64,000 bases of DNA from an uncultured Acidobacteriota bacterium (lineage in GTDB: Bacteria; Acidobacteriota; Blastocatellia; RBC074). Position 1 is the first letter of the stretch, and every line of letters starts with the position of its first letter. A program made the translations under genes and the position numbers. The notes beneath the pieces were generated by a model. The model made no database searches, was not told where the DNA came from, and saw only the letters and a list, made by a program, of their open reading frames with translations. The stretch lies in assembly GCA_963794955.1 (NCBI GenBank), contig CAWCGF010000003.1, positions 125,985-189,984 of the forward strand, read 5' to 3'. Of the stretch, positions 10,742-61,240 are shown one piece after another.

Positions 10742-10750
10742 CGAGCAATT

Positions 10751-10801: not shown

Positions 10802-10816
10802 AGTTGCTCTTCAGAC

Positions 10817-34096: not shown

Positions 34097-34180
34097 TGTA
34101 TAGCAAACTTTCCAGTTTGCTGCCAATTCCCGCCGCAGCTCGCTGATAAACACATCAGCAAACTGGAAGTTTGCTGTACA
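34097..34180. repeat. 84-bp palindromic element: two GCAAACT-N(3-4)-AGTTTGC palindromes with outward TGTA(C/T)A extensions, 86 bp upstream of the M28 peptidase start
   Basis: The left site is tgtatAGCAAACTttccAGTTTGCTg and the right site is cAGCAAACTggaAGTTTGCTgtaca. A second 84-bp copy with the same architecture lies at 61155-61238, and a related inverted pair at 35983-36118. Confidence 0.6.
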
Positions 34181-34265
34181 TTTCAGAAGTTTGACTTGCT
34201 CATCTCTATCTGTCAGAGGCATACTCCGTTTTCTCTTATCTTTTATAATTTACCCGGAGAAACCT

Positions 34266-35987
34266 ATGCAGAAACGACTTGTTTTGCTCTTCCTTGCTTT
34301 TACTTCTTTGTTGCAGGCTTGTAGTCCGCCGCCACAGACTGCAACAACCAGTCCTACGCCCGCTCCCCTACCAATGGCCAACATGCCGGCTGAACTCAAG
34401 CCTGCGCTTGATAGCCTCAGCGCGGACGAGCTGCTGCAACATATCAAGACACTGGCGTCGGACGAATACGAAGGTCGCGCACCGGGTACGAAAGGCGAAG
34501 AGCTAACGGCCAATTACCTCACTGAACAATTCAAGCAGCTTGGCCTCAAGCCTGGTAATCCTGATGGCACGTACATTCAGAAAGTCCCGCTCGTTGGTTA
34601 CACGCCGGAACCCTCAGTCTCCTTCAACGTCGGCGGCAAGAAGTTGGATTTAGCGACGGAAGAGTATTTGATGATTGCTGGTCGTTACGTCCCGATGACC
34701 AAGATTGACAGCTCGGATGTTGTGTTCGTCGGCTATGGTGTCGTCGCGCCGGAATATGGTTGGGACGATTTCAAGGATGTGAACGTCAAAGGCAAAACGA
34801 TTGTGATGTTGGTCAACGACCCCCAGGTTCCTGATCCGGGCGATGCGAAAAAACTGGATGACAAACTCTTCAAGGGCAAAGCGATGACGTATTACGGACG
34901 CTGGACGTACAAATACGAAATTGCGGCGGAGAAAGGCGCGGCGGCAGCGATCATAGTGCATGAAACCGCGACCGCAGGCTACCCGTTTGAAGCGTTGCAA
35001 AGCATTCGACAGGAAAACTTTGGCCTCAAAGGATCGCGACAAAATCGTGCCGCTGTCGAATCGTGGATCACGGTAGATGCCGCGAAAAAGCTGTTTGCTT
35101 CCGCCGGGCAAGACTACGATGCATTGAAAAAGGCGGCGCTCAGCAAAGACTTCAAACCCGTCACGCTCAATGCCAAAGCCAACTTCCAAATCAAAACCAC
35201 GCTGCGCGAAGTAGATTCCAAAAACGTCATCGCCAAGCTCGAAGGCTCTGATCCGAAGCTCAAAGACGAATACGTGATTTACACCGCGCATTGGGATCAC
35301 ATGGGACGCAACGAAAAGTTGTCGGGCGATCAAATCTTCAATGGCGCGATTGATAACGCGTCAGGTGTGGCCTGTTTGCTCGAATGGGCAAAGGCGTTCA
35401 CGAAACTCCCGACGCCGCCGCAGCGTTCGATTCTGTTTTTGGCTGTGACCGCCGAAGAGAAAGGCTTGCTCGGTGCCAAGTATTACGCCGAACATCCGTT
35501 GTATCCGCTCGACAAAACGCTGGCGAACATCAATATGGATGGCATCAATCAATGGGGGCGCACGAAAGACATCACGGTCGTCGGGCTAGGCAATTCGACG
35601 CTGGACGATGTGTTAGCCGAAGCCTGTAAGACGCAAAATCGCGTTATCGTGCCTGATTCTGAACCGGAGAAAGGCTACTTCTATCGCTCGGATCATTTTG
35701 AATTCGCCAAGCAAGGCGTGCCTGCGCTCGACCCGGATGGCGGGAATGATTACATTGGCAAGCCCGCGGACTACGGCCAGAAGACGCGGGATGAATACAC
35801 CGAAAAGGACTACCACAAGGTTTCTGATGAAGTGAAACCAAATTGGGATTTGTCAGGCGCAGTCGAGGATTTGCAATTGCTGCTGCTGGTCGGCTACAAC
35901 GTTGCCAACGGCAACAAATGGCCGGAATGGAAACCCGGCACTGAATTCAAAGCCAAACGCGAAGCGATGCTGAAGAAAGTAAAGTAA
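34266..35987 (+). CDS. M28 family peptidase (aminopeptidase with PA domain), lipoprotein
   Basis: The lipoprotein signal is [13 protein letters not shown]. The M28 zinc-ligand regions are HWDHMG, DNASG, EE and DG. The start at MQKRLVLLF was chosen inside the longer ORF. Confidence 0.8.
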
Positions 35988-36118
35988 CGCAAACTTGTCA
36001 GTTTGCATGGCCTCATAGACCGTCACTTTTGTCCTAACCGATTCGCCTCCAGAAGAGGCTTTCGGTTTTTCATGAGGATTGGGCCCATCAGCCATGCAAG
36101 CTGACAAATTGCGTTACG
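35983..36118. repeat. ~135-bp inverted repeat between convergent genes (arms GTAACGCAAACTTGTCAGTTTGCATGGC and its complement), sharing the GCAAACT-N4-AGTTTGC core
   Basis: Each arm is itself palindromic, and the spacer also contains the palindrome GCCTCcagaaGAGGC. The position suggests a bidirectional terminator-like structure. Confidence 0.55.
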
Positions 36119-36121
36119 TGC

Positions 36122-39100
36122 CTAGAACCTCGTCCCCCTTGGCTGCGCCAGCATTACTTGCGTGGTGCCGCCTGTTTCATCTGCCCACATGGTAGCCAGA
36201 TTTCCATTCCAATCTGTCACTGTAATAGCGAAGAAAAGCTGCACGCCAATGTTGTTCGAGGCATTGATGAACGACGAGAAATTCGCGCCGCCATCGGATG
36301 ACGTAACAAAGATTACGTCTCGGCCTCCCGGAAAGATTAACCCTGGGCCTAAGCCACCCGCAGAAATCCCAATGTTGCCTCGGCGATCAACGCCGATGTT
36401 CGGCACGAAAGAACGGGTGCCAAGCGCCATCGTGCGGGTGACATTGCGGGCCGCAGAAAAGCTCGTGCCATTGTTGGTCGAACGGGAGAAGTAGATTTCC
36501 TGTTCATTGCGGGTGAGGTCGCGGCGCGAGAATGCGACGTTGATATTCCCCGCGCCATCTATCGCCAGGGAAGGGCTGTCGGCTACCACGTTCGTTGAAG
36601 TACTCAAAATGCCGGAGAGATTCAAGGGGGTCGAGAAGGTCGTTCCGTTGGTTGAGCGAGTAAAGAAAATATCTCTTTGCCCCGAACTATTAAACCCATC
36701 GAAGGCAATGCTGACGGCTCCGGCGGTATCAACCGCGATGCTCGGATTAATTCCTTGAATCGTGGTAGGTGATTTTGACGTGACATTGATGGGTGCCGAA
36801 ATAGTGGCTCCGCCGTCGGTTGAGCGCAGAAAGAAGACTTGCGCCCCGGTCTCGACAGCCACGTTAATTGAACCATTCCTGCTGACAGCCAAATCATTGC
36901 TGATGAAGGCCACGCTGGTACTCGTATTTCGGGTCACGTTAATTGCTGCCGAAAAAGTTTGCCCACCATCGGTGGAGCGCCTCATAAAGATATTCTCCGG
37001 CACACCTGCCTCGCCCCAGCGAATCCAACTGATAGTGATATTTCCCGTGTCGTCCACGCCGATGCGGGCATCTTCTAATCTAATGTTAGGATTGCTTACG
37101 CTGGCAATCGGCGTCGTTTGCACCACGGAGCCCTTGCGGAAGCGGGTGTAGACCAAACCGCCGAAGGTGCCAAGCCCCCGCCGCGTATCAACTCCCGTCA
37201 CTACGTGCAAATCGTTTTGCGCGTCAGGTGCAGCATCAGGAACGTAGTGCGATTCGCGCAAACTGGTGAGCGCTTGCGGCGCTTGTGCGAGTTCAAAAGG
37301 TGAAGACACATTCAACCGGATAGTCGTCCAATGCTCGACTCCCCCGATGGTCACTTTGGCGGTAATTGGGTAGGTGCCTGGCGCTGTATTGCTATTGGCT
37401 GTCACCCGCAGATTCAGCGTTTGCGCATCCGTCCGACTAAAGCTGTAACTTAACCCTTCCGTGCCCTCAACCGTGGAGACGGCTGCCGCCGTAGGATTGG
37501 CAGGCAAGGCGAACGCGCTATCGAACGCATCTATTTTCAGATGAAAGTCCGTAGCAAATCCGGCCTGTACGTTTTGTGCCGGTTCGAGCGGGAACAGGTT
37601 GAATTCTTCGTTGTTCGTGGCGGCATCTTCCGGTTTGATGATATGTGCGTAGACATCCGGGTTGAGGCCATTGCGTTCATCGCCCCAGCCCAGCACAAAA
37701 CCATTATCGCCCGCGACGATTTGGTTGTAATCGCCGTGATAGCCGGCACGCGTGCCAAACGGCGTGGGGGCCAACAGCCAATTGCCAGGCGTAATGCGAT
37801 GCCCTGGCGTGAAGCTACGCCCACCATCGTTCGAGGTGGTGATGTAAATGTCGTGCAGCACGTTGTTGATGGGGTCGTTGCGGCGATCATAGTACATCAC
37901 GCCCAGCACACCATTCGACGTCACCGCTGCGGCAGGCATAAATTGATCGGTATCGAACGGATCATCTGCCGCAATAACGGGGGCGCTCCACGTCGCGCCG
38001 CCGTTGGTGGAGCGGACGACGACAACATCACTTTCATCGCGGCGCGCCACCAACGCGGTCGGCTTGACGTCGGTCGTGATGTACACCGTCCCGCGATATG
38101 GGCTATTGGAGGTGTCCACCGTAATGCTGGGGAAGGGGGGTAATTCAAAACTGCCGTTGTAATGTCGCCCAAAGCGCAGTGAATCATCCCTCAGTGCGGT
38201 CACAGGCGCGCTGAAAGTTTCTCCGCCATCCATGGACTTGATGACTGCGAGTCCTGGAATGCGACTGTCGAAATAGGTGACATAAAGTTCCCCATTCGGC
38301 CCCACTGCGGGCATCGAGCCTTGCGTGAATCCCGCCGCACTGTGCGCCACGCCAATCGCTTTAGGGGTGGCCCAGTTCTTCCCGCCATCCGTAGATTTGA
38401 CAAAGTAAAGACTGGGTGTGACCTGATTGGAAAAGCGCGTCCAGGTGATGTAAATGCTGCCGCGAGCTGGGCTGTTGGAGTTGTCAACGGTCATCCATGG
38501 TTTGTCGTGACTGTTGCTGGGATTCGTGATGGTAGGAATCGCATTCACAGGCGTTGACCAGCGCGAACCGCCATCGGTAGATTTAGTGACCGCCAGGAAC
38601 CAGTTCCCCAAACTATTGAAGCCCATTTGGAGAAAGTAAAACACGCCGCCCGGGCCAGCCGCCATCACTGGATCGCCAATCCCACTGCCAAAGGCTGCGA
38701 TGGGCGGTACGGTTTGCTTCCAGGTTTTGCCGCCGTCCTTGGAATAACTGATACCCGATCCATAACCAGCGATGCTTGCATCGTTGTACCCGACCACGAT
38801 GTTATTGCCTGCCGCCGCCACGCTCACCTCGCTCTGCAAGCCGGAACGAAGGTCAAAATCAGGATCATTGACTTGTACATTGCCGCTGCCTAAAACTCGT
38901 TCTGGTGCCGCTTCGAGTTTGGCTTTAGCCCCTTCCCGGTCATCTGTGGCTGCTTCTGCTCGGGCGGCTGACGAACTGCCTTTGGTGAAGAGGATGTCTT
39001 CCGTCAAGCCATACTTCCGTAACAGCATGGATTGTGCGTTGCCCGAAAGCTGATCAAAGGCTGGATCGTAGAGCAACCACAGATCACCGTCATTGCCATA

Positions 39101-39292
39101 GCCGGATTGCAGTGCCGGCACATCCTCGGCATTCGTGGTGCGCAGTAAATTGTTTGCATATTGGAGTGCCCTTTTCTGCACGGGCGTTGGTTCATCCGCT
39201 TGCCCATAGGCCACATTCGTGGCAACGGGCAAACTTAAGATGGGCGCGATAATCAATAGGTAGCTGAGTAAATAACGAGAGATCGTTTTCAT
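36122..39292 (-). CDS. Large secreted BNR/Asp-box repeat protein (sialidase/sortilin-like beta-propellers)
   Basis: A signal peptide is followed by at least 9 Asp-box motifs (S-x-D-x-G-x-T-W/F), for example YSKDGGKTW, STDGGSRWS, STDGGKNWA, SMDGGETFS, STNGGATWS, SNDGGRSFT, STDGGQTFS, STDGGATIS and SSDGGANFS. Confidence 0.8.
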   Translation of the reverse strand: MKTISRYLLSYLLIIAPILSLPVATNVAYGQADEPTPVQKRALQYANNLLRTTNAEDVPALQSGYGNDGDLWLLYDPAFDQLSGNAQSMLLRKYGLTEDILFTKGSSSAARAEAATDDREGAKAKLEAAPERVLGSGNVQVNDPDFDLRSGLQSEVSVAAAGNNIVVGYNDASIAGYGSGISYSKDGGKTWKQTVPPIAAFGSGIGDPVMAAGPGGVFYFLQMGFNSLGNWFLAVTKSTDGGSRWSTPVNAIPTITNPSNSHDKPWMTVDNSNSPARGSIYITWTRFSNQVTPSLYFVKSTDGGKNWATPKAIGVAHSAAGFTQGSMPAVGPNGELYVTYFDSRIPGLAVIKSMDGGETFSAPVTALRDDSLRFGRHYNGSFELPPFPSITVDTSNSPYRGTVYITTDVKPTALVARRDESDVVVVRSTNGGATWSAPVIAADDPFDTDQFMPAAAVTSNGVLGVMYYDRRNDPINNVLHDIYITTSNDGGRSFTPGHRITPGNWLLAPTPFGTRAGYHGDYNQIVAGDNGFVLGWGDERNGLNPDVYAHIIKPEDAATNNEEFNLFPLEPAQNVQAGFATDFHLKIDAFDSAFALPANPTAAAVSTVEGTEGLSYSFSRTDAQTLNLRVTANSNTAPGTYPITAKVTIGGVEHWTTIRLNVSSPFELAQAPQALTSLRESHYVPDAAPDAQNDLHVVTGVDTRRGLGTFGGLVYTRFRKGSVVQTTPIASVSNPNIRLEDARIGVDDTGNITISWIRWGEAGVPENIFMRRSTDGGQTFSAAINVTRNTSTSVAFISNDLAVSRNGSINVAVETGAQVFFLRSTDGGATISAPINVTSKSPTTIQGINPSIAVDTAGAVSIAFDGFNSSGQRDIFFTRSTNGTTFSTPLNLSGILSTSTNVVADSPSLAIDGAGNINVAFSRRDLTRNEQEIYFSRSTNNGTSFSAARNVTRTMALGTRSFVPNIGVDRRGNIGISAGGLGPGLIFPGGRDVIFVTSSDGGANFSSFINASNNIGVQLFFAITVTDWNGNLATMWADETGGTTQVMLAQPRGTRF

Positions 39293-39735
39293 ATTTGACT
39301 CCTTCATTAAGATGGAAACGCAACTGGAATTTTGCGCTTCGAGAATTGCGGTGCGAGATCGCTGCCGGATGATCTCTTGCGAATGGAACGCAGGCACGAT
39401 TTGCTTGCGTTGGCTGAAAGCACACGGTGTGAGTTATGGCTGAAGCGCATCGCCTATCAACAGCACGACGAGTTCGGCTGTCGGATGAGACCAATACCCA
39501 CAGGAATGCAAGTACAACTCTTTTGATGAGGATGTCGTGAGGGGAGGAACCACTTGCATTGATTGCGCCAGGCACAGCCAAAATCCAGCGGGCGATTTTC
39601 GCCGGTAGACTTTCAATGCCACGATAGTTGTGGCCACAAACTCTCGTTGTTCCTGAAATAACACGGTCGGCTGACGCGCGTATAATAGTCCCGCGCTAAC
39701 CACAATTCAAGGGAGGGCTGAGACGAATTGACAGG

Positions 39736-40866
39736 TTATTTGATAGTCAGTGTTTCACGCGCTTGCCGCACCAGACGTTCGGCTTCTGCTGCACTTGTGG
39801 CCAAGGCCGTGAGGTGTCCCATCTTCCGGCCTTTGCGCGGTGCAAGCTTGCCGTAAAGATGAACTTTGACGTTGGGAAACGCACAGGCTGCGGCCCAATT
39901 CGGTTCGCCCGCCTGCCACAAATCGCCCAGTAAATTTGCCATCGCTGCGGGGCACAATAATTCTGTCGAGCCAAGTGGCAAGCCGCATACTGCCCGCAGT
40001 TGTTGCTCGAATTGACTTGTCACGCAAGCATCAAAGGTGAAATGACCGGAATTATGTGGACGGGGCGCGGTTTCGTTGATGATCAATTGGCCTTCGCGCG
40101 TGAGGAAGAATTCAACGCACATCACGCCGACGACGTCCAACGCTTCCAGCACGCCGCGCGTAATCTCTACGGCTTCTTTCACTACTTCTGGCGCAATCGG
40201 AGCAGGCGCAACCGTAACGTCGAGGATGTGATTGGAATGCTCATTGGCGACTACGCCATAATGCACGAACGCCCCGTCTATACTCCGCGCGGCGACAACG
40301 GAGACTTCGCGCTCAAAATTGATAAAGGCTTCAAGAACGGCTTCGTGGTTGCCGACCGCATTGAGAGCCTCCTGCGCTTGTGCGGGCGAGGTGATTTTAC
40401 TTTGGCCTTTGCCATCATAACCAAAGCCCGCTGTTTTCAGCACCGCCGGGCAGCCGATTTCTTCCAGCGCTACGAGCAAGTCTTCTAACGAATTGATGCG
40501 TTTGAAAGGCGCTACGGGAAAGCCGTTGTTGGCCAGGAAGGTCTTTTCGCGCAGCCGATGTTGCGCGGTGTGCAAAACGTGACCGCCCGGACGGACGGGC
40601 GCAAATTCAGAAGCCGCTTCGACCGCAGCAGAGGACACGTTTTCAAACTCAAACGTGACGACGCTGACGTTGCGGGCAAACGCGCGCACCGCGTCCAGAT
40701 CATCGTACGAAGCAATAATTTCTTCGTCGGCAATTTGCCCGGTCGGCGTGTCCTGATCGGGCGAAAATGTATGCACGCGATAGCCCATGCGTCGCGCTGC
40801 AATAGCAAACATGCGACCGAGTTGGCCGCTCCCAAGAACGCCGATAGTGGAGCCGGGAAGAATCAT
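39736..40866 (-). CDS. purK: N5-carboxyaminoimidazole ribonucleotide synthase
   Basis: An ATP-grasp fold is present, with an N-terminal GSGQLGRM and motifs conserved across PurK. Confidence 0.9.
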   Translation of the reverse strand: MILPGSTIGVLGSGQLGRMFAIAARRMGYRVHTFSPDQDTPTGQIADEEIIASYDDLDAVRAFARNVSVVTFEFENVSSAAVEAASEFAPVRPGGHVLHTAQHRLREKTFLANNGFPVAPFKRINSLEDLLVALEEIGCPAVLKTAGFGYDGKGQSKITSPAQAQEALNAVGNHEAVLEAFINFEREVSVVAARSIDGAFVHYGVVANEHSNHILDVTVAPAPIAPEVVKEAVEITRGVLEALDVVGVMCVEFFLTREGQLIINETAPRPHNSGHFTFDACVTSQFEQQLRAVCGLPLGSTELLCPAAMANLLGDLWQAGEPNWAAACAFPNVKVHLYGKLAPRKGRKMGHLTALATSAAEAERLVRQARETLTIK

Positions 40867-41447
40867 AAAAACATGAAGCGGTAAGAAAAATCATCAACGG
40901 TTAGACTCGAATTTAATAGCGCCGCAGACATCTCAAGCACTGTTAATCGAGCATCTGGGCGACCAAATTCATTAAGCTTATAAAGTTGAATCGTTATAGT
41001 TGCTCTATATTGGTCTTCGGGTGTGGCTTGATAGTTAGGTTTCAATTCGCCTGTTAGGGCATCAAAGAAAAAGTAGCGGTTAAATTCGTATTCGATTTCA
41101 TCCGGCTTAAGCAGCGCTTCATCAAATCTTTTGCCTTTCGCGCTTTGACACCTATCACAACAAGCAAAAAGATTTTCCCACTGATAGACCAAGCACGGGT
41201 ATGATTCTTTCGGACGAAAGTGTTCGATCGTTTCTCTGATCTGCGAACGCATTGGACAACTATCACAAAAAGAGCAGTGCTTCTTGGTCATTACTAGCAA
41301 TAACTCAATCAAGGGTGAATAAACCTTCTTACGCCATTGAAACTCATGTTTTGGGTTTTGCAATCTCTTCTGCTCATATTCTAGTCCCCAGTCTTCCCAG
41401 TTTTGAATAAGAACGGCTGGAGGCTCAGGGCGCTGGAGTTTCATCAT
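40863..41447 (-). CDS. HNH (His-Me finger) endonuclease, PtuB-like (194 aa)
   Basis: Treble-clef cysteines CSFCDSC ... ACCDRC flank H (IEHFRPKE) and N (YQWENL). The gene is low GC. Its stop overlaps the purK start (ATGA), and its start overlaps the ATPase stop (ATGA). Confidence 0.65.
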   Translation of the reverse strand: MMKLQRPEPPAVLIQNWEDWGLEYEQKRLQNPKHEFQWRKKVYSPLIELLLVMTKKHCSFCDSCPMRSQIRETIEHFRPKESYPCLVYQWENLFACCDRCQSAKGKRFDEALLKPDEIEYEFNRYFFFDALTGELKPNYQATPEDQYRATITIQLYKLNEFGRPDARLTVLEMSAALLNSSLTVDDFSYRFMFL

Positions 41448-42751
41448 AGCTCGTAGTTTGTGCCTTTGATTTTATTTATTTGCTTAATCTCAAGAGAAAT
41501 GATGCTAAGTAATTCTTCGCTTTGCTGGGCCAATTTCTTGCCTCGTTGAATGAATTGTTTTTTATTAATAGGTTTGCCCCGTAAGATGTGGTCACGTTGT
41601 TGTTGGAATTTGTCTAGCTCATCTTGTGTCTCGCCGCCAAAAGACTTTTCAATATCAAATACCTCACGCAATACGGAACGATAACTTGCCGAAGATTTTG
41701 ATTCAGTTACTTCGCCAAGATAGGCTTTCCCCTCTTTTATCTTTAGCTCATAGATTGCTGCGCCATCTACGGAATTAACAACAAATGGAGAATGGGTCGT
41801 AAGAAAGATTTGTGCACTGGGAAAAAGCTTTTGCACTGCTGGCAAAATTTTTCGCTGCCAAGCTGGATGTAAATGCACTTCAATCTCATCGAGAAATAGG
41901 ATGAGATTGAGCGGCTCACCATATTCCCAGGGTACTAAATCTAACCTCATTAATAAATCGCCAATCCAGCTAATGGAGGAGCGTAAGCCATCAGGAAGCA
42001 CATCGAAATCAAGTTCGGTATTGTTGGCAAGTAGAACTAACGTAAGCGGAGATGTTTTTAGAGCAAATTCAACTTTATAGCCTGCGATTTCAGAGATGGC
42101 AGTTTCTAATCTGGCAATCAAGGTGGCGAATTTTTCCGCTAGGGGCTGATTACGCTTTTCCTTCTCTAAAGCTCGCTTAGAAATATTATTAGCGATCCAT
42201 TGATTAATAGTAAATGAACTGTTTGCTTCTTTAATAAAATCTAGCGCATCACTGAAAGGGCTGTATTTAATCTCTTGGATTGCATTTACATTTGCAGCTC
42301 GTATTAACCTATATCCAGAATATGCCGCAACAAAAAACTCAGTATGGGGGGGCCAGCTAGCACGCTGACGGTAAGCTTCAATTGAACTGTTGGAACTAAA
42401 CTCGCTCAAGTCAATGGATCTTGTAAGCATTTGTGAGGTTTCCTCAACGGAGTCGTAAACATTTACTTTTACGTCAGCTCCTTCATCAAATACACTGCAA
42501 AGCTTAGGTTGTTTTCTCTCTACATCCAACTTTCGAAATCTTTTTATAAAAGCATTATTAGCGTTAGGATTTGTAAAGTCATCAGCCTTGCTGAAAATGC
42601 TAGCTAGGGCGTGCAGCACTGTGGTCTTCCCACTTCCATTAGGCCCCGTCAGAATATGAATTTCAGCCTTACCGCTTTCTTGTGGCTTAAATTCAAATTC
42701 AACCTCATCAAAGGGCCCAATATCTTTTAGGTAGAGTTTTCGTATGCGCAT
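41444..42751 (-). CDS. ABC-type (AAA_15/AAA_21-like) ATPase, PtuA-like (435 aa)
   Basis: Walker A is LTGPNGSGKTTVL. Walker B/D-loop is LILFLDEIEVHLHP. The H-loop is LTTHSP. A long coiled-coil-like insert lies between Walker A and Walker B. The gene is low GC and starts 8 nt after the purE stop. Confidence 0.7.
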   Translation of the reverse strand: MRIRKLYLKDIGPFDEVEFEFKPQESGKAEIHILTGPNGSGKTTVLHALASIFSKADDFTNPNANNAFIKRFRKLDVERKQPKLCSVFDEGADVKVNVYDSVEETSQMLTRSIDLSEFSSNSSIEAYRQRASWPPHTEFFVAAYSGYRLIRAANVNAIQEIKYSPFSDALDFIKEANSSFTINQWIANNISKRALEKEKRNQPLAEKFATLIARLETAISEIAGYKVEFALKTSPLTLVLLANNTELDFDVLPDGLRSSISWIGDLLMRLDLVPWEYGEPLNLILFLDEIEVHLHPAWQRKILPAVQKLFPSAQIFLTTHSPFVVNSVDGAAIYELKIKEGKAYLGEVTESKSSASYRSVLREVFDIEKSFGGETQDELDKFQQQRDHILRGKPINKKQFIQRGKKLAQQSEELLSIISLEIKQINKIKGTNYEL

Positions 42752-42759
42752 AAGCCAAT

Positions 42760-43257
42760 CTAGCTAAGTGTATCACTTAAAACTTTATTCGTTTGTTCAT
42801 GGCGAAATTGGTTTAGCTTTTCACGCAACTCAGGACGCGTGTTGGAAAGAATGGCTACGGCTAACAATGCCGCATTCGTCGCACCCGCTTGTCCGATAGC
42901 CACTGTGCCGACCGGAATTCCCGCGGGCATTTGCACGATAGACAAGAGCGAATCCAGCCCGCTCAAGGCTTTGCTTTGCACCGGAACACCGAGCACCGGC
43001 ACGGGTGTTTGCGCCGCGACCATGCCGGGCAAATGAGCCGCGCCGCCTGCGCCGGCAATGATGACTTCGAGGCCGCGTGCTTCGGCTTGGGCGGCGAATT
43101 CGGCCAAGCGCAACGGCGTGCGATGCGCGGAAACGATTTTGCATTCGTGCGGCACATCGAATTTGGTCAGCATTTCTGACGCCAGCCTCATCGTTTCCCA
43201 ATCGGATTTGCTGCCCATGATCACAGCGACGAGCGGGTTTTCAGTTTCGGTAGTCAT
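42760..43257 (-). CDS. purE: N5-CAIR mutase
   Basis: The motifs [14 protein letters not shown] and [12 protein letters not shown] are conserved. Confidence 0.9.
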
Positions 43258-43289
43258 CTGAAAGAAACAGGAGATTACGAAACAACGGA

Positions 43290-43375
43290 AAAAATCGAAA
43301 CATCTCGGAAGATGGAAGGCAATCTACATATTTTCTGTTTATTCCATTTATTCCGAGATGTTCCGTAATCTCGTC
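43290..43375 (-). terminator. Long imperfect hairpin with U-tract downstream of icd (minus strand)
   Basis: The minus strand reads GAGATTACGGAACATCTCGGAA-loop-TTCCGAGATGTTTCG followed by ATTTTTTCC. The structure also lies upstream of purE. Confidence 0.45.
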
Positions 43376-43383
43376 TTTGATCT

Positions 43384-44809
43384 CTAAGCGGAATATCCAG
43401 CTTTGCCGTCGAAGTTGTACAGGTTTTCGGTCTTGATGTAATCAAGCCCTGCGCCCGACACGCGATTCAACAGGCTGGCGATTTGTTCGTGCTTGACGTT
43501 GCCTTCGCCCGTGAAGCGGCAGCGCCAGTGATCGGAGCAGAACGTTTCCGGCGAGCCATCCGGCCAGACTTTCGTGCCGCGATTGTTCAGCGTAGCGAGC
43601 TTCAATCCTTCGCCGCTGAGCGCAGAAAGAATCGTGCTCAAATCGTTGGCGGAACCCGCTGTCCAATCCAGGTACACGTCCACACCGACCAGTTCTTTTT
43701 TCTCCGGCGTCGGCGTGCTGATTTGACCGAGCTTCGATAAATCCGCCGCTTTGTATTCTGCCGCTTTGAGCGTTCTCAGGCTTTTGACCGAGACGCGCAA
43801 CAACGGCTTCAGCGAATTCTTTGGTGCCGACTTTTTGTTTGCTCACGCCTTCGGTGTAAATGTCGTAGGTATGAATGCCGTCTTCGAGCGTCTTCATCCA
43901 GGCGTTGTGCGCAAGCGCGGCTACGTCGGGTTGTCCGATGTGAACAAGCATCAGGATTGCGCCGAGGAACAAGCCGGACGGGTTCGCCAAATTTTGCCCG
44001 GCACGCCGTGGAGCCGAGCCGTGAATGGCTTCAAACATCGCTACGTTTTCGCCGATGTTCGCGGAACCAGCGAGGCCAACCGAACCGGCGATTTGCGCGG
44101 CTACGTCAGAAAGTATGTCGCCATACAGATTCGGCATTACGACAACATCAAACGCTTCGGGCGTGTCGGCGAGCTTGGCTGCGCCGATGTCTACGATCCA
44201 GTGATCGGCTTCGATGTCTGGATATTCGGGCGCGATTTCATCAAACACGCGATGGAATAGGCCGTCGGTCTGTTTCATGATGTTGTCTTTCATGAAGCAG
44301 GTGACTTTCTTGCGGTTGTAATTGCGCGCGTACTCAAACGCATAACGCACGATCTTTTCGGAACCGGGACGCGAAATCAGCTTCAGGCACGCTTCGACTT
44401 GTTGCGTTTGGCGATACTCAATGCCCGCGTATGTGTCTTCTTCGTTTTCGCGGACGATGACAACATCCATGCCAGGATGTTTGGTATCAACGAAGGGATG
44501 ATAGGCGACGCACGGGCGGATATTGGCGAATTGTCCGAACGTTTTGCGCACCGTTACGTTCAGTGATTTGTAGCCGCCACCTTGCGGAGTCGTGATCGGC
44601 GCTTTCAAAAACACTTTCGTGCGGCGCAGCGATTCGTACGCTTCCGGCGCAATGCCAGCGGTGTTGCCGGAAAGGTACACTTTCTCACCGATTTCAATGG
44701 TTTCAATGTCAATGCGCGCGCCTGCGGCCTGAATTATATGGAGCGTCGCCGCCATAATTTCCGGGCCGATGCCGTCGCCATGCGCTACGGTAATGGGTAC
44801 GTTTGCCAT
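43384..44809 (-). CDS. icd: NADP-dependent isocitrate dehydrogenase with a C-terminal extension; apparent frameshift near 43790-43810
   Basis: ORF 43442..44809 is a clear dimeric IDH up to ...EFAEAVVARLGQK, then reads as nonsense. ORF 43384..43803 continues in another frame with a plausible C-terminal domain (KAAEYKAADLSKLGQ...DHWRCRFTGEG...). The switch is at an A4 run (caaaag). Confidence 0.75.
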
Positions 44810-45068
44810 AATGATTTTAGTAATCCCTTTCTCTCAAAAGTGAACAGTAAAGTGCAGTTGTTTGGAAATCCTGAAGGATTGCAAAGGCGAGATTTCACCA
44901 CAAAGTCACGAATTGCACAAATGATTGGGCGGCGGCAGCATCGCTGACGTTCTATCGCACAATCGGTAGCGCAGCATTTGTGAGATTTTTCGGGTTCGCC
45001 ACCGCATATTTTACAGTATGCACAGCACCTATAAGGTGAGAGTCGTTATGCTATAATCCGCCGCCACT

Positions 45069-48000
45069 ATGGTTCGGATCTCTCCTTCGTCCCAGTTCTG
45101 CTTGCGGCAGAGCAACTTGTTACTCATCCTCATTTGGCTGGCACTGCCTGTCTGGGCGCAGTCATATCATTTCGATCATTGGACAACCGACAATGGCTTA
45201 CCACAAAACACCATCCGTAATATCGTACAAACACGCGATGGATATTTATGGATGACAACTTTTGATGGCTTAGTACGTTTTGACGGCGTCCGCTTTACGG
45301 TATTCGGTCATGACAACACACCAGGTATCGTTAACAATCGCTTCTTTTTCATCCATGAAGGCTCCGACGGTACGATTTATGCGGGGTTCGAAATGAACGG
45401 AATAACGGTATATCGCAACGGGCGTTTCAAGTCCTACACGCCAGCGAATGGCTTTCCCGCCGGAGAGATTGGGGGGTTGTCAGAAGATGTCAATGGCGAA
45501 ACACTTATCCGAGTCAACCGTGATCTACGCAGTCATTTCTATTATCTACGCAACGATCAGTTTATTCCGGCTCCACCCGAATATCAGTTCAGCTCCGATA
45601 AAAAATTTGCTGGGTCCAAGGGGCGTTTTTGGGTAGCAGATCGCAACGGCATCATCTTACAAGAAGGCGGCAAAACGTCTCGATATCCACTTCGTTTTCA
45701 GGCCAAATCCATTGATGCTGAGGTCAACTTATACGAAGACCGCGCGGGCGGTCTATGGATCGGCGATTTAGCTCAGCTTTATTATTTGCAGAATGGCCGT
45801 CTAACGCGTTACGGGGAAAAAGAGGGATTCCGCTCTAAGTTGTCAACCTCTGCTCACTCCCTGATCGCGACGGAGTCAATTCGTAATTTCTGTGAAGACG
45901 CCGAAGGAACTCTCTGGTTTATCTTAGGTTGGCACCGCCGAGAGGACAATCGGCTGGCTTACATGAAAGATGGTCGCGTGACAGTCTTCAGTCCAGAAGA
46001 TGGCTTCCCCTTAACGGATATTGGAACAGTGGTCGCAGATCAGGAAGGTGCCGTCTGGGTTGGCACCTCCGTCGGGCTATTCAGAGTACGCAGGCAAATC
46101 ATCACAGCGTATTCAACCGAACAAGGGTTAGCGGGCAAAGAAACGTATCCGCTCTTGCAACGGCGGAATGGGGACATTTTGATCGGGACAATGCAAGGCC
46201 TCAGTCGCTTCCGTGAGGGCAAATTCAAAACCATCCTGCCTGCCCCTCTGCCCCAATGGAATATAGGGGCAGCGCAAGCGTTATGGGAAGATGCCAACGA
46301 TAATATTTGGCTGGGTGTACTCGGCGGTTTGGTGCGCTTCGAAAATGGAAAAATCAAAGAACAGCTATTATCCGGGTTCAGTACCACTAACGCTATTGTC
46401 CCGGATCACACCGGGAATCTTTGGGTCGGGGCGCAAAACGGTTTGTATCGTCTCGTCAATAATAAAATTGTCCAACATTACACAATCTCTGATGGGTTAC
46501 CGAATGACGACATAAAAGTTATCCGTGAAACTCGCGATGGGACGCTTTGGATTGGCACCTATGGCGGATTGGCGCGGCTCAAAGATGGCGCCTTTACAAA
46601 GTGGGATATCGCTGATGGTTTGCCGAGTGACCGTATTCGTGCCTTGTACGAAGACGCTGATGGAGTGCTTTGGATCGGCACCTATGATGGCGGATTAAGT
46701 CGCTTTCATAATGGCAAAATTTTTAACTACACAACAGAAACGGGATTATTCAACAATGGTGTCTTTGCCATCTTGGAAGACCTGCACGGCAATTTTTGGA
46801 TCAGTTGCAATCGTGGCATTTATCGCGTCAATCGCCATGAATTAAATGAGGTTGCTGCCGGAAAAAGCGCGCGCGTCAACAGCATCACGTATGACAAATC
46901 GGATGGCATGCTGAACGTAGAGTGTAACGGTGGACGCCAACCCTCTGCACTGATTGCTCGCGATGGAAAGTTTTGGTTCCCTACCCAAGATGGTGTAGTC
47001 GTGGTTGATCCATCAACAATTCCTGCTAATTCACTGCCGCCTCCCATCCAAATCGAAGCGGTTTCGATTGATCGGACAGTTCTCGGCCTGGATGTCTTGC
47101 AAACCATTTTGCGTGATCCTTCCGCCGCCATCACGATTCAGCCTGGCCAAACCACCCTTGACATCAGTTATACCGCACTGAGTCTAACCAAATCTGACCT
47201 TATTCGCTTTCGGTACAAACTGGCAGGATTAAGTGACGAATGGGAAGATGCCGGATCACGGCGCGTAGCTTATTTCTCTTATTTGCCGCCAGGGGATTAC
47301 ACCTTTCACGTCATCGCCGCCAATGCGGATGGGGTTTGGAATGAAATTGGCAAAACGTTAAAAATAAAAGTTATCCCTCCCGTCTATCGTCGTTGGTGGT
47401 TTTTGGCGCTGACCGCTGGCACAATCCTGGGATTGTTTATCTGGGGTTACAAATATCGCATCAAACAATTAGAGCGTGAACGCGACCTACACCAGAGATA
47501 TGCCCGACAACTTGTGGATGCTCACGAAGGTGAACGCAAACGCATCGCGGTTGAATTACACGACGGTCTAAGTCAAAGCCTGGTCATTATTCGTCAACGT
47601 GCGACGATTTGCTTACAAGCAAAAGACGATCCGCTACGCCAACAAGAGCAACTGGAAGCCATTTCTGAGGCCGCCACTGCGGTCATTGATGAAGTGCGCG
47701 GAATCGTTTATGACCTTCGTCCGATACAGCTTGATTTGCTCGGCTTAACCAATTCACTGCACGAGTTACTTGATAAAATCAGTCGGACGCATCAGTTACC
47801 CATTGAGCGGGATTTGACAGAACTCGCAGAGCAGCTATCCCCGGAAATCGAAAATAATTTATACCGCATCGTGCAGGAAGCACTGAACAATATCGTACGT
47901 CATGCACACGCCACTCGTGCGAGTATTGCCTTACATCGTAATGAAGATAAACTACTGTTGACTATCGCAGATAATGGCTGTGGCTTTACTCTTGATACTT

Positions 48001-48793: not shown

Positions 48794-48812
48794 TTCTCAC
48801 TATAAAATTCTA

Positions 48813-48834
48813 AAATACCCAGTACTGGGTATTT
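48813..48834. other. Perfect 22-bp palindrome AAATACCCAGTACTGGGTATTT just after the response-regulator stop, at the left edge of the AT-rich island
   Basis: Terminator-like stem without a U-tract; alternatively a protein-binding site. Confidence 0.4.
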
Positions 48835-49183
48835 ACCCCAAAAAGCGTTTTCGATAGAGTGTCGTTGTCTTTTGATGTTCGTGAATCAGTAACAGCTTGC
48901 ATTTTTTCTGTTACCGATTCACCTGGAAGATAAGTATGCTTTGGCACTGCCTCTTTTGCCAGGCGATCACTCGGATGGGCTTCACCACTACTACCCCATT
49001 CTTGAGTAACATCCAAATTAATACGTAAGAGCCTTTATGGTTTGCGTAAGGGACGCACCACCAAAAGCGCTCAGCACGACGACAGAGGTACTCGTCTGTC
49101 TGAGCATTTGTGACTAAGGTTCCTAAAACTTTAAGAGCGTAGATAACGGCTTCCATGGTCGTTATCACAAGGAAAATTTCGGC

Positions 49184-49912: not shown

Positions 49913-49928
49913 GAGCCAGGAGACATTT

Positions 49929-50150
49929 ATGATTAAAAATATGATGGTTAGGATTTTCGCCGGATTAGTGGCGGTTTCATTATTAGGCGTTGTTTCGTTT
50001 GCCCAGACTCAGCATATTTTCTATCGCGGAACCGACGGCAACATTAACCACATTTGGTATGACGGCACTATCCATCGTGACCAATGGACAGTAGCCGCCA
50101 AAGCGCCCCTTACCGCAGGTGATCCGGCAACGAAGGCGATGGGACATTAA
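49929..50150 (+). CDS. Small secreted protein (73 aa), paralog of 54538..54747
   Basis: The signal peptide is MIKNMMVRIFAGLVAVSLLGVVSFAQT. The mature part is QHIFYRGTDGNINHIWYDGTIHRDQWTVAAKAPLTAGDPATKAMGH, about 70% identical to the paralog. Confidence 0.5.
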   Translation: MIKNMMVRIFAGLVAVSLLGVVSFAQTQHIFYRGTDGNINHIWYDGTIHRDQWTVAAKAPLTAGDPATKAMGH

Positions 50151-50300
50151 CAGCAAAAATTCCGTAGCACCGAAAGAAGAAATCGTAAGGCCATTAGAGT
50201 AATTATTAGCTTGGCAGTTGCAATTACTGCTCACAACTTAACCTCACGGGTGCAGGCCGATCCCTACGATCTGCTCCGTTATACCAAAGGAAACCTCACA

Positions 50301-50816
50301 ATGCTTACAGTATCAAAACCATTTATTACACGTGTGCTGGACCTCTTACTGCTGGCAGGGATCGTATCCGCAAGTTTCATCAGCAGTGACGCACGAGTCC
50401 GTCCCGCTTCATTGATAGCCAAATCTCCTCTGAGTCTCACCACAGCTCTTCCTTTAGAGGGTGATTGTGAGTGGAAAGAATCCGAACTGGGATGGACGGG
50501 GCAATGGGTTCGCTATGACTCAGACTGGAAGCAGGGGGTACACTTATATACTGCTAGTTGGACGAAAGATGGTCAGCAAGATGTTTATGCTGTCCTTACC
50601 ATTACCATCACCGGGAGTTCAGTCAAAATCCATAGAGAAAATAAAGACCTTACCACCTGTGCTTATACCGGTACGTTAAGTGCTGACCGTAAGTCCGTCT
50701 CTGGCAACTATTCTTGTAGTAATAATGCAGGTCAGTCCTACAGTTGGTCTGCGACCATCAAGGGTGGCTGCTTTGAACTACCTCAAAAGCCAAAAAGACA
50801 ACCAAAAAGTGAATGA
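50301..50816 (+). CDS. Secreted protein consisting essentially of the four-cysteine domain (copy B)
   Basis: A signal/TM (MLTVSKPFITRVLDLLLLAGIVSASF) is followed by CEWKESELGWTGQWVRYDSDW...SWTKDGQQDVYAVLTITITGSSVKIHRENKDLTTCAYTGTLSADRKSVSGNYSCSNNAGQSYSWSATIKGGC. Confidence 0.55.
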   Translation: MLTVSKPFITRVLDLLLLAGIVSASFISSDARVRPASLIAKSPLSLTTALPLEGDCEWKESELGWTGQWVRYDSDWKQGVHLYTASWTKDGQQDVYAVLTITITGSSVKIHRENKDLTTCAYTGTLSADRKSVSGNYSCSNNAGQSYSWSATIKGGCFELPQKPKRQPKSE

Positions 50817-58728: not shown

Positions 58729-60099
58729 CTAAGCCAATGTCACTCGGTTTGTCGCTTTCTCGCGCGCGCGATCAAAGTACATCACTTGTCCGCTGCGATA
58801 GGCGTCCACGCCGAGGCGAATCGCGACCATTGCCTTGTAGCCCAACTCCACATCGAAATGCACCGCTTCTTTGCCGCGTATGGCATTGATGAAATTGCCC
58901 TGATGGTCGGATGTCCAGGGTTTGCCTTGATATTCGCCTTTGCTATCAACTTCAACAATCAATTCGTCAACGTTGTATTTCTTCTTGAATTCCTCGCGGT
59001 ACGGGCGTTCGGGCACAATGCGGAGTTTCGAGTTTTCCAGATACAACGTACCTTTTGTGCCGCGAATGAGTTGCGGCTGTCCTTGCGCAAAGCCAGTGGC
59101 ATTAAGCATCGAAGAGCCGATCAGAATGGCGAATTTGCTGGGGAATTCAATCGAAGTAAAGTAGGTGTCAGGCACGTCGCGGACATCGCCGTCTACCGGC
59201 GAATAAATGCCGCCGCCTGCCATCACGCGCGTCGGAAATTCAGGACTGCCAATCGCAAACATAATTGGCGACAGACGATGATAGAACAGGTCCGTCGCAA
59301 TGCCGCCCGAATAATCCCAATACTTGCGCCAGCGGAAGTAGCGATCTTTGTCGAACGGACGCTTTTTCGCATAACCGAGGAAGGCTTTCCAATCAATCGT
59401 CTTCTCGTTTGCTTCAGTGTCGGGATCAATTGTGTAGTAATTCCATTCTCCAATTGGCGTTTGACGAGCGTAGCTGGTCGAAGCCCACAAGACTTTGCCA
59501 ATTGTCCCTTCGGCAATCACGTCGCGCGCTTTCCAATACTGCAAATCCGACAGATGCTGGCTGCCGACCTGAAGCTGCAATTTGGTTTCCGCGACCTTGC
59601 GCGATAGCTCGCGCGCTTCGTCAATCGTGTAGGTCATCGGTTTTTCAAGGTAGACGTGCTTGCTTTGATTGAGGGCTTCCATCGCGTGGCGTGTATGCCA
59701 ATGATCCGGTGAGGCAATTACGACCGCGTCAATGTCTTTGCGCGCGCACAAGTCCTGATAGTTGTGATGAATGTTTTTGTCTTCGACACCGGTTTGTTTT
59801 TGCCCGCGTTGTTTGTGCTTGTCGTAAATATCGCAGATCGCCACGCATTGCACATCGCCCTGAGCATTCTGGCGCTTGAACAGGTTGTTAGTGTGTGCAC
59901 CCATGCGTCCACCCATTCCGATGAAGCCGAAGTTGATGCGATCATTCGCGCCGATGACGCGACGTTTTGATGTATCAATGGTGGGCGCTTCGGTAGTGAA
60001 TTCGGATTCGGCTTTGACAAGCGTGGAGCCTGCGGTTAACGCGGCAGCGCCGATGGTGGATTGCGAAATGAATTTACGGCGAGAAGATTTTTGAGACAT
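58729..60099 (-). CDS. Gfo/Idh/MocA-family oxidoreductase with a Tat signal peptide
   Basis: The Tat signal is MSQKSSRRKFISQSTIGAAALTAGS. The Rossmann motif is INFGFIGMGGRMG. The fold is Gfo/Idh/MocA, with both N- and C-terminal domains. Confidence 0.8.
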   Translation of the reverse strand: MSQKSSRRKFISQSTIGAAALTAGSTLVKAESEFTTEAPTIDTSKRRVIGANDRINFGFIGMGGRMGAHTNNLFKRQNAQGDVQCVAICDIYDKHKQRGQKQTGVEDKNIHHNYQDLCARKDIDAVVIASPDHWHTRHAMEALNQSKHVYLEKPMTYTIDEARELSRKVAETKLQLQVGSQHLSDLQYWKARDVIAEGTIGKVLWASTSYARQTPIGEWNYYTIDPDTEANEKTIDWKAFLGYAKKRPFDKDRYFRWRKYWDYSGGIATDLFYHRLSPIMFAIGSPEFPTRVMAGGGIYSPVDGDVRDVPDTYFTSIEFPSKFAILIGSSMLNATGFAQGQPQLIRGTKGTLYLENSKLRIVPERPYREEFKKKYNVDELIVEVDSKGEYQGKPWTSDHQGNFINAIRGKEAVHFDVELGYKAMVAIRLGVDAYRSGQVMYFDRAREKATNRVTLA

Positions 60100-60124
60100 A
60101 GCGATTCTCCCTGCGAAAGGTTTT

Positions 60125-61135
60125 TTACTCACAATTCAGAACAATTTTGCCGAATTGCCCGGCCTCTTCCATTCGTTCGTGCGACGCGGCGGCATCAGCG
60201 AGTGGAAAGACTTTGTCTACGACGGGTTTGGTGCTGCCGTCTTCGTAGAGCTTTAACATTGCGGCGAATTCTTCTTGTGTGCCCATTGTGGAGCCGCAAA
60301 TATCCAACTGTTTCCAGAAGATGCGACGCAAATCTACAGTTTTTGGCAAGCCGGTAGTTGCTCCATACAGGGCAATGCGTCCGCCGGGTTTAATGATTTC
60401 GACGCATTTGGCCAGTGTTTCGCCACCTACACTGTCAATGACTACGTCTGGGCCGTCGCCGTCGGTCATCCCGACGACCATTTGCGCCCAATCCATGAGC
60501 TTATAATTCGCGCCACCATCTGCGCCGATTTCTTTGGCGCGTTCGATTTTCTCTTCACTGCCGGAGGTCACAAACACATTTGCGCCGAGCTTCTTGGCAA
60601 TTTGTAGCGCGAATGCAGAAACGCCGCCGCCGATGCCTGTTACTAACACGTTATCGCCAGCTTTGACGCGGGCGCGAGTGACGACAGCACGATAAGCAGT
60701 GAGACCTGCAAGCGGGAGCGCCGCCGCTTCTTCCCACGTCAATCCGGTAGGCTTCGCGTGACAATACTCAAACGGCACTTTGACGAATTGCGCATAGGTT
60801 CCATCATCAGGCAAGCCAAGAATATGGAAAGACTTGTGCTGTACACGCGGATCATTGCCCCAACCCATGCCGGGATTAATAACAACGGCTTGGCCGAGCA
60901 ACTCTTTCGGTGCTTCAGCGCCAAGGGCAGCCACTTCGCCCGCGCCGTCCGAGCCGAGGATAATGGGAAATTTTAAGCCTGCGTACATACCTTTGCGAAT
61001 CCACACATCGCGGTGATTAAGCGCGGCAGCTTTAAGTTTGACGACGACTTCGCCCGGTTTTGGTTCGGGATCAGGCCAGTCTTCAAGCTTGAGATTTTCC
61101 GGGTCCCCTTTTTCGTGTAAGACGATTGCTTTCAT
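60125..61135 (-). CDS. Zinc-type alcohol dehydrogenase / quinone oxidoreductase (MDR superfamily)
   Basis: The N-terminus reads MKAIVLHEKGDPENLKLEDWPDPEPKPGEVVVKLKAAALNHRD. The NAD(P) motif is GIGGGVSAFALQIAKKLGA. A GGAGA Shine-Dalgarno sequence sits 8 nt upstream of the ATG. Confidence 0.8.
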   Translation of the reverse strand: MKAIVLHEKGDPENLKLEDWPDPEPKPGEVVVKLKAAALNHRDVWIRKGMYAGLKFPIILGSDGAGEVAALGAEAPKELLGQAVVINPGMGWGNDPRVQHKSFHILGLPDDGTYAQFVKVPFEYCHAKPTGLTWEEAAALPLAGLTAYRAVVTRARVKAGDNVLVTGIGGGVSAFALQIAKKLGANVFVTSGSEEKIERAKEIGADGGANYKLMDWAQMVVGMTDGDGPDVVIDSVGGETLAKCVEIIKPGGRIALYGATTGLPKTVDLRRIFWKQLDICGSTMGTQEEFAAMLKLYEDGSTKPVVDKVFPLADAAASHERMEEAGQFGKIVLNCE

Positions 61136-61154
61136 GAAGTTTCTCCTCAAAAAA

Positions 61155-61238
61155 TGTACAGCAAACGTGACAGTTTGCTGCTGCTTGCATAAATTGTAGA
61201 TGCATCAGTCACCAGCAAACTGGAAAGTTTGCTGTACA
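61155..61238. repeat. 84-bp palindromic element (second copy): tgtacAGCAAACgtgacAGTTTGCTg ... cAGCAAACTggaaAGTTTGCTgtaca
   Basis: It has the same architecture and length as 34097-34180 but a different inner spacer. It lies 20 bp upstream of the MDR oxidoreductase start and right after the thioesterase stop. Confidence 0.6.
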
Positions 61239-61240
61239 TT

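Follow-up and report, generated by a model that had tools for sequence, protein, structure and literature searches.

The window analyzed here, a stretch of 64,000 nucleotides from an uncultured Blastocatellia bacterium of the phylum Acidobacteriota (contig CAWCGF010000003.1, positions 125,985 to 189,984), carries three palindromic loci that we interpret, with a probability of roughly 85%, as repetitive extragenic palindromic (REP) doublets, or REPINs (REP doublets forming hairpins), of a system of the REP-associated tyrosine transposase (RAYT) type. Two of these loci, copies 1 and 2, are members of one family (family 1). Numerous copies of it are scattered through genomes of related Blastocatellia, where it occurs mainly as doublets of uniform length and seldom as single arms. 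The third, which the first-pass annotation of this DNA had placed in the same family, is, by its alignment with relatives, a decayed copy from another REPIN family (family 2), which is related to the 84-bp family but distinct from it. The same annotation had hesitated between paired operator sites and a small dispersed element resembling a REP or a miniature inverted-repeat transposable element (MITE), and of these proposals the dispersed element is the part that held. Systems of the REP/REPIN-RAYT kind have been well documented in Proteobacteria and Cyanobacteria.

The cores of copies 1 (34097-34180) and 2 (61155-61238) are each exactly 84 bp long and are built from two palindromic sites, as originally annotated. 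Their inverted symmetry, which had been taken to end with the core, extends 4 nt beyond each end (AAAA...TTTC in copy 1 and AAAA...TTTT in copy 2), giving the full extents listed in Table 1. Copy 1 has a left arm (34097-34122, TGTATAGCAAACTTTCCAGTTTGCTG) with the head GTAT and a right arm (34156-34180, CAGCAAACTGGAAGTTTGCTGTACA) whose loop is shortened by a 1-nt deletion, separated by a spacer of ~32-33 nt. The left arm of copy 2 (61155-61180, TGTACAGCAAACGTGACAGTTTGCTG) carries the loop GTGACA in place of TTTCCA, while its right arm (61213-61238, CAGCAAACTGGAAAGTTTGCTGTACA) is identical to the master sequence of the family and its spacer measures 32 nt. The heads of the four arms read GTAT, GTAC, GTAC, and GTAC, and compared with the master sequence both window copies are slightly decayed. 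The centers of the paired sites lie 54-54.5 bp apart in both copies, and the two spacers show no likeness to each other nor to any spacer in the loci that we compared.

A profile built from the arms recognized copy 1 with E values of 3.7e-10 and 8.7e-10 and copy 2 with an E value of 3.6e-12. Within the 64-kb window, GCAAACTNNNNAGTTTGC occurs 4 times at no more than one mismatch, against 0.01 expected, and the looser pattern GCAAAC-N2-8-GTTTGC occurs 5 times, against 0.07 expected, a number that none of 100 shuffled sequences reached. All three loci carry GCAAAC-N5/6-GTTTGC hairpins, and a chance origin of these sites is ruled out. A search of the 64 kb with the profile of related arms revealed no further family-1 copy, so that the window holds two family-1 copies and one family-2 copy.

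We then scanned a species-representative set, with one genome per bacterial and archaeal species, for the pattern TGTAYAGCAAACNNNNNNGTTTGCTG. Since the hits did not include the copies of the window itself, its genome lies outside that set. The scan yielded 39 loci, of which 35 are in the Blastocatellia metagenome-assembled genome (MAG) GFS_6523, 2 are in other Blastocatellia MAGs (one each), and 2 are on a single Cloacimonadaceae contig. In GFS_6523, the 26-nt arm TGTACAGCAAACTTTCCAGTTTGCTG is arranged in 35 head-to-head doublets, 30 of them 84 bp long, 3 of 85 bp, and 2 longer; these counts cover 158 kb of that MAG, so it contains at least 35. Unpaired arms number at most 6, some of which lie at contig ends or are artefacts of self-overlap. 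The doublet of another MAG, SMAG_U13319 (L010), is likewise 84 bp long. The first-pass annotation had suggested such a search and had named dozens of copies without relation to gene starts as the outcome that speaks against operators, and this is the distribution that we found in one related MAG.

These copies define the anatomy of the family-1 arm as (T)GTAC-AGCAAAC-TTTCCA-GTTTGCT(G), namely, a four-base head followed by an 8-9-bp stem (CAGCAAAC/GTTTGCTG) closed by a loop of 4-6 nt. Among 79 arms chosen at no more than three mismatches, each position of the 26-mer is 90-100% conserved, the asymmetric loop TTTCCA included, and the GTAC head is present in 70. The 32-nt spacer is far more variable than the arms; it falls into subfamilies, and both orientations occur. 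The 4 nt on either side of the doublets co-vary as inverted complements (GAAA/TTTC, GGAA/TTCC, GGGA/TCCC, and AGCA/TGCT), and comparison of the flanks of 84-bp elements showed no direct target-site duplication. At least 20 of the 34 doublets in the related loci lie outside any open reading frame (ORF) of 110 or more amino acids, while such ORFs cover 83% of these loci, an extragenic enrichment that is a lower bound because the ORF caller is crude and greedy and overcalls, with false ORFs extending through clusters of repeats and past open ends of contigs. In the window, all three loci are intergenic. The six elements that we tested, including the three of the window, all fold as single-stranded DNA into a single long hairpin, the stability of which was matched by none of 200 shuffles (Table 1).

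The two sites on the Cloacimonadaceae contig CALOBL010000003.1, which belongs to an unrelated phylum, are single sites. They read TCAGCAAACAGGAAAGTTTGCTGTACA (L012, 1412-1440) and TCAGCAAACAGAAAAGTTTGCTGTACA (L032, 7936-7964) and are identical to the Blastocatellia arm at 25 and 24 of 26 positions, respectively, with most of the loop positions left free by the search also matching. They could reflect a mis-binned contig, horizontal transfer, or coincidence.

Many of the GFS_6523 doublets are part of larger nested structures. Across loci L001-L039 (for example, L007 2340-2900, L011 3560-3900, and L038 3200-3700), a ~230-bp inverted-repeat element with the ends CCTGAATCCACGGCTAAGAAAT and ATTTCTTAGCCGTGGATTCAGG bears an 84-bp doublet at a fixed site between GAAA and TTTC. 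This ~230-bp element sits in turn inside the loops of further palindromes, between GCAAACTGTTAG and CTGTTAGTTTGC, between CACAGACTGAAG and CTGAAGTCTGTG, or between GACAAGCTGGCAG and CTGGCAGCTTGTC, and its insertion is accompanied by an apparent 6-7-bp duplication, CTGNNAG.

The third locus of the window occupies the 134 bp that separate the stops of two convergent genes, coding for an M28 family peptidase and a BNR-repeat protein, and the stop codon of the M28 gene (TAA, 35985-35987) falls within the GTAA head of its left arm (35984-36011, GTAACGCAAACTTGTCAGTTTGCATGGC). The right arm (36091-36117, GCCATGCAAGCTGACAAATTGCGTTAC) had been described as the complement of the left one; the inverted pair does exist, but complementarity is imperfect, extending to 25 of 28 positions with one indel. 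Family 2, to which we assign this locus, is characterized by a GTAA or GTAG head, a CGCAAAC..GTTTGCG stem, a length of ~125-142 bp, and a spacer longer than that of family 1. The assignment was made because the same family, with a GTAG head, forms doublets of 123-125 bp in GFS_6523 and because of an alignment with a relative, L059, in which the head is GTAA as in the window. At the orthologous position, L059 harbors two intact tandem doublets of ~142 bp (GTAACGCAAAGCTGTCAGTTTGCGTGGC ... GCCACGCAAACTAACAGGTTTGCGTTAC), which align with the window locus, parts of the spacer included, and two additional family-2 doublets lie 1 kb away.

Comparison of orthologous sites in close relatives, which had been proposed as a check on an operator function, showed the elements to be absent there. 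The spacer between the stop codon of a thioesterase gene and the ATG of the adjacent quinone oxidoreductase-like gene (qor), into which copy 2 falls, measures 105 bp in the window versus 30 bp in L066/L067, whose qor product is 92% identical. In L044 (WBZS01000043.1, qor 88% identical), the same gap contains at 2352-2500 an unrelated inverted repeat of ~135 bp, GGACTTTGGGCTTGGGTCTTTG ... CAAAGACCCAAGTCCAAAGCCC; different palindromic elements have settled at this site on separate occasions. No copy-1 element was found upstream of the M28 orthologues of L058, L059, and L060 (92, 89, and 80% identical, respectively), two of which have a different upstream gene just 29 bp from the M28 gene. At the position of the third locus, L060 has an ordinary terminator hairpin, and L058 has a single GTAG-headed palindrome of another type (4247-4303, GTAGCGCAAAGCTGTTGGCTGGCACTAACAGCTTTGCGCC, minus strand). 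L058 thus carries another REP type, and several REP families therefore coexist in this clade. Such gain and loss at orthologous sites is indirect evidence that the elements are mobile.

A search for the motif HUH...Y..NP in all ORFs of the loci examined returned one protein, encoded in L003 of GFS_6523 and containing the motifs HVH and Y..NP. On one side, its gene is flanked by an 84-bp doublet (1725-1808) and on the other, beginning 8 bp from the ATG, by a degenerate doublet (2583-2609 and 2673-2699). The NCBI annotation covers only the downstream part of the protein, 186 amino acids long (P0001). The L003 protein matches the NCBIfam model REP_Tyr_transpos with an E value of 8.6e-15, and it has more than 3,100 homologues, many of which bear in their source records the name "REP element-mobilizing transposase RayT" or [quoted passage not shown]. 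Against the PDB, a profile of 28 homologues gave as its sole match 4ER8, the Escherichia coli TnpA-REP (E = 5.5e-7), the motifs aligning to HMH and YIYINPVKHG of that structure; a phmmer search of the PDB with the single fragment had given only a spurious match to PRP8, and Pfam Y1_Tnp matched the L003 fragment with an E value of only 0.008. Invariant in the 28 homologues are N-H-V-H, Y...NP, T43 (in FVTFRL), and N230-P231-V-K233-A234-G235. The N-terminal threonine and the NP(L/V)(R/K)xG sequence after the tyrosine, described by Nunvar et al. as specific to RAYTs (PMC2817692), are both present in the Blastocatellia homologues. Transposases of the L003 type form a divergent clade of the RAYT family.

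The association between transposase and repeat recurs in other sources. P0002 (L040), the closest intact homologue for which DNA was available, is 72% identical, comes from an independent metagenome, and has the exact arm TGTACAGCAAACTTTCCAGTTTGCTG on both flanks. P0004, P0019, and P0021, which are ~59-63% identical to P0002, have head-to-head doublets or tandem arrays alongside in which the GTAC head is kept and the stems differ (Table 1). In L003, L040, L041, L062, and L064/L065, the REPs flank the RAYT gene in inverted orientation and co-vary with it, a joint variation of REP and RAYT by which such systems are defined. In both L003 and L041, whose RAYTs are 59% identical, the gene lies between PSCyt2/PSD1 (DUF1549/DUF1553) and DUF1501 genes, with order and orientation unchanged, which suggests a conserved chromosomal site and hints at vertical inheritance.

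The properties by which REPs, REPINs, and RAYTs are recognized are for the most part those observed here. The 26-nt arm is an imperfect palindrome that forms a stem-loop and falls within the 20-40 nt of a REP, and its location is extragenic; the arms are paired head to head at a fixed length, doublets outnumber singlets, and the element as a whole has a predicted hairpin fold; and the transposase contains an HUH motif and a catalytic tyrosine, as expected of the Y1 transposase fold. Several observations nevertheless weigh against our interpretation. A conserved 5' GT(A/G)G head is a defining feature of REPs (Nunvar 2010, PMC2817692) and underlies the "GTAG" superfamily (Di Nocera 2013, PMC3733652), but family 1 has GTAC, or GTAT in copy 1. 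We therefore keep family 1 outside the GTAG superfamily; its head occupies the same position, and it works like a member with a variant head. The L003 gene contains an in-frame stop codon, being either a pseudogene or affected by an assembly error, and the transposases score 55-74 bits (E = 1e-15 to 1e-20) against NCBIfam NF047646, under its equivalog cut-off of 80 bits. A tblastn search with the RAYT detected no RAYT gene within the 64-kb window, and the one hint that the window organism has such a gene is circumstantial, a 73%-identical RAYT (P0003) on a 1-kb contig of the sequencing run that also yielded the exact M28 protein. Hitch-hiking of one spacer subfamily in the ~230-bp repeat, and not independent transposition, may account for part of the copy number in GFS_6523. 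The unrelated spacers of the two window copies are not explained by simple copy-and-paste of a single master element. Finally, the case for movement of family-1 doublets is indirect and comes from the comparison of sequences.

The genes around the three loci are listed in Table 1. Copy 1 lies 86 bp from the M28 ATG (34266), in a 480-bp gap that begins at the end of a DUF3108 gene (33782). Copy 2 lies 20 bp from the qor ATG (61135) and fills the gap from the thioesterase stop codon (61241-61243) to the qor ribosome-binding site, both genes being on the minus strand. These distances agree with those first annotated, whereas the accompanying view that the elements are placed at promoters as a rule was not borne out: copy 2 is intercistronic, the third locus lies between convergent genes, and copy 1 alone could lie within a promoter. 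No gene for a DNA-binding regulator stands beside any of the three loci, the neighbors being DUF3108, M28, BNR, thioesterase, cupin, and qor. Scans of the complete window for tRNAs and for Rfam families at the gathering threshold gave no matches, and therefore no described RNA family accounts for the hairpins.

Table 1. Coordinates, basis, and predicted folds of the repeats, transposases, and neighboring genes
Feature	Sequence	Coordinates	Strand	Basis or detail	Fold (kcal/mol)	z
Probable family-1 REP doublet (REPIN), copy 1	Window	34093..34184	.	Arm profile and fold	-27.8	-8.8
Probable family-1 REP doublet (REPIN), copy 2	Window	61151..61242	.	Arm profile and fold	-30.8	-8.6
Probable family-2 REP doublet, decayed (third locus)	Window	35984..36117	.	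Alignment with L059 tandem copies and fold	-37.1	-8.6
GFS_6523 copy	L011				-41.0	-13.4
GFS_6523 copy	L037				-36.4	-11.8
Intact relative of third locus	L059				-40.1	-7.6
RAYT gene of GFS_6523	L003	1868-2575	-	236 codons, one in-frame TAA at codon 36		
P0004	L041			Flanking arm GTACCGCAACCTGTCAGGTTGCGG		
P0019	L062			Flanking arm GTACCGTAGGTTGTCCAACCTGCGG		
P0021	L064/L065			Flanking arm GTACCGCAGACTGTCTAGTCTGCGG		
M28 family peptidase gene (context only)	Window	34266..35987	+	Pfam PF04389, E = 3e-48		
Zinc-type (medium-chain dehydrogenase/reductase, MDR) quinone oxidoreductase-like dehydrogenase gene (qor)	Window	60125..61135	-	Pfam ADH_zinc_N and ADH_N		
4HBT-type thioesterase gene	Window	61241..61630	-	Pfam 4HBT_2, E = 9e-15		
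BNR-repeat gene	Window	36122-39397	-	Convergent with M28 gene		

The best surviving alternative, which we consider unlikely and which is compatible with a REPIN origin, is that the host selects these sequences as RNA or DNA structures and keeps them as bidirectional terminators, attenuators, or stabilizers of mRNA. The arms were rated terminator-like on both strands, the copy 2 hairpin read in the direction of transcription, from thioesterase to qor, is followed by TTTTTT, and the third locus lies between convergent genes at a position where L060 has its ordinary terminator. E. coli REPs, moreover, are reported to influence termination and mRNA decay (PMC3733652 and PMC3479197). On the other hand, the presence or absence of elements and their replacement by unrelated palindromes at orthologous sites show that no specific element is needed, and copy 1 is located upstream of a gene and not at a 3' end. 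As REPINs, the window copies are most likely neutral or mildly consequential insertions. Once transcribed, hairpins with T-runs may attenuate or terminate transcription, notably between thioesterase and qor, which we regard as a side effect and not as the reason for the elements' existence.

Much less probable is the possibility that the elements are classical MITEs, that is, deletion derivatives of insertion sequences (IS) moved in trans by a DDE transposase, with the 26-nt arms serving as terminal inverted repeats. They are indeed short and present in numerous dispersed copies, in which inverted ends that are conserved enclose an interior that varies, and other repeats in GFS_6523, with their 6-7-bp duplication, look MITE-like. 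The 84-bp elements themselves lack a direct target-site duplication, their flanks co-varying as inverted complements, and in none of the loci examined did we find a DDE transposase between such arms; a MITE of the DDE type is unlikely for these two reasons. In addition, the only gene bracketed by the arms, in two independent sources, encodes a Y1/HUH RAYT homologue, and every arm on its own is a hairpin that bears a conserved 5' head, as do REPs and the ends of IS200/IS605 elements. The label "MITE-like" is thus accurate insofar as it denotes a small dispersed repeat, for which REP doublet or REPIN is the appropriate term.

The least credible reading, in which the GCAAAC-N6-GTTTGC palindromes would each be bound by a dimeric repressor or activator, with a tetramer bridging the two sites to control the M28 and qor genes, draws on the good 8-bp inverted repeat present in every arm, on a center spacing of 54-54.5 bp (~five helical turns) that is the same in both copies despite their unrelated spacers, and on the location of both copies less than 90 bp from a start codon, but it is largely refuted on its own criteria: relatives whose proteins are 88-92% identical have not kept the elements at the orthologous sites, the related MAG has its copies by unrelated genes, in both orientations and often nested in other repeats, no regulator gene is found among the neighbors, the third locus separates two convergent gene ends, and identical arms are found on both sides of a transposase gene. 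An operator of the PsrA or TetR kind (GAAAC-N-GTTTC type) was ruled out by the same evidence from orthologous sites and copy number. Integron attC sites, which also combine conserved ends with a variable middle, were rejected as well, since the arms depart from the RYYYAAC/GTTRRRY core sites and have no associated integrase.

The closest known counterparts are the REPINs and RAYTs of Pseudomonas fluorescens SBW25, where REPINs were described as hairpin-forming pairs of inverted REPs whose spacer is less conserved (Bertels & Rainey 2011, PMC3116915). The Blastocatellia elements share with them the inverted pair, the spacer less conserved than the arms, the fixed inter-REP distance, the large excess of doublets over singlets, the predicted long hairpin, the extragenic location, and a cognate RAYT flanked by the same REPs. 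They differ in the phylum of their host, in having a GTAC head instead of GTGG or GTAG, in an AT-richer 26-mer arm, and in a transposase of ~240 amino acids with ~100 residues between the N-terminal threonine strand and the HUH motif. The REPs of E. coli, arranged in bacterial interspersed mosaic elements (BIMEs), and their transposase TnpA-REP (RayT/YafM; 4ER8; PMC3479197 and PMC2817692) likewise combine tagged hairpins with an HUH and tyrosine enzyme whose gene is flanked by REPs. Unlike family 1, E. coli REPs bear GTAG heads and form BIME mosaics with defined linker motifs, and the likeness of the Blastocatellia enzymes to TnpA-REP is limited to the catalytic C-terminal part (32 bits).

In Acidobacteria, a sharply defined, longer subgroup of RAYT-like tyrosine transposases has been described under the names TIRYT and TIRtron (Di Nocera et al. 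2013, PMC3733652); their genes are flanked by inverted repeats and not by GTAG REPs, and some of these repeats are self-complementary and form moderately abundant families of dimers. The Blastocatellia system resembles them in comprising acidobacterial RAYT-like genes with flanking inverted repeats. In this comparison, which draws on the published description, it differs from the TIRYT/TIRtron systems of Terriglobus, Koribacter, Acidobacterium, and Granulicella in its host group, in flanks that are REP-like tagged hairpins in head-to-head doublets, and in the presence of a GTAG-headed sister family. Elements of the IS200/IS605 type (IS608 and ISDra2) also have a Y1 HUH transposase and lack target-site duplications, and recognition of subterminal hairpins on single-stranded DNA would by analogy be a further common trait; they carry their own transposase and have asymmetric ends, while the dispersed Blastocatellia units are short, symmetric, and noncoding. 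Neither this Blastocatellia family nor any REP with a GTAC head turned up in the literature searches. The kind of element is known, and it is found in a host group where it is hardly described.

Other repeats were noted in the window. A purine-rich inverted repeat at 12490-12640 (GGCGAAGGAGAGAAGGGG), with 27-nt arms that are 96% complementary and 97 nt apart, may be a member of another hairpin repeat family. Two strong intergenic hairpins, one at 10743-10809 (25-nt arms, 96% complementary, 17-nt loop) and one at 62920-62974 (26-nt arms, 77% complementary, 3-nt loop), are probably terminators or other repeats. Gene blocks at 49959-52650 and 54556-58550 are duplicated with 71-80% DNA identity (repeat families D1-D3, D6, D9, and D12) and constitute tandem paralogous clusters with internal periodic motifs of ~225 and 330 bp. 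Runs of the heptamer ATTGGTC (ATTGGTCATTGGTCATTGGT; family D8) occur at 4269-4295 and 25267-25321.

As REPINs, the doublets of the families described here are nonautonomous repeats in which two tagged hairpins are placed head to head around a spacer. By analogy with E. coli TnpA-REP and with IS200/IS605 elements, the transposase would recognize hairpin and head on single-stranded DNA, cut beside the hairpin, and then move or copy the doublet, the spacer being a passenger whose length, but not sequence, would be kept. A broader proposal, to which we give less than even odds, is that the GTAC-tagged doublets and the large group of ~240-aa RAYT homologues represent a REPIN-RAYT lineage of Acidobacteriota that is distinct, ancient, and for the most part passed on vertically, and in which the head would be fixed, the stems would co-evolve with the enzyme, and the 32-nt spacer length would reflect a geometric constraint imposed by a transposase dimer engaging both hairpins at once. 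If this were true, it would constitute an independent long-term association of REPINs with RAYTs outside Proteobacteria and Cyanobacteria.

For annotation, these data mean that the palindromes should not be taken as regulatory sites of the M28 or qor gene. The repeats also break metagenome assemblies, the richest MAG being in pieces of 1-17 kb with repeats at contig ends, and they could be used as markers for strain typing. A concrete REP family, with a GTAC head, a hairpin, and 84-bp doublets, is now tied to a clade of RAYTs in the poorly studied and mostly uncultured Blastocatellia, and five cognate RAYT/REP pairs, which have a common head and differing stems, offer convenient material for studying how these enzymes read their substrates.

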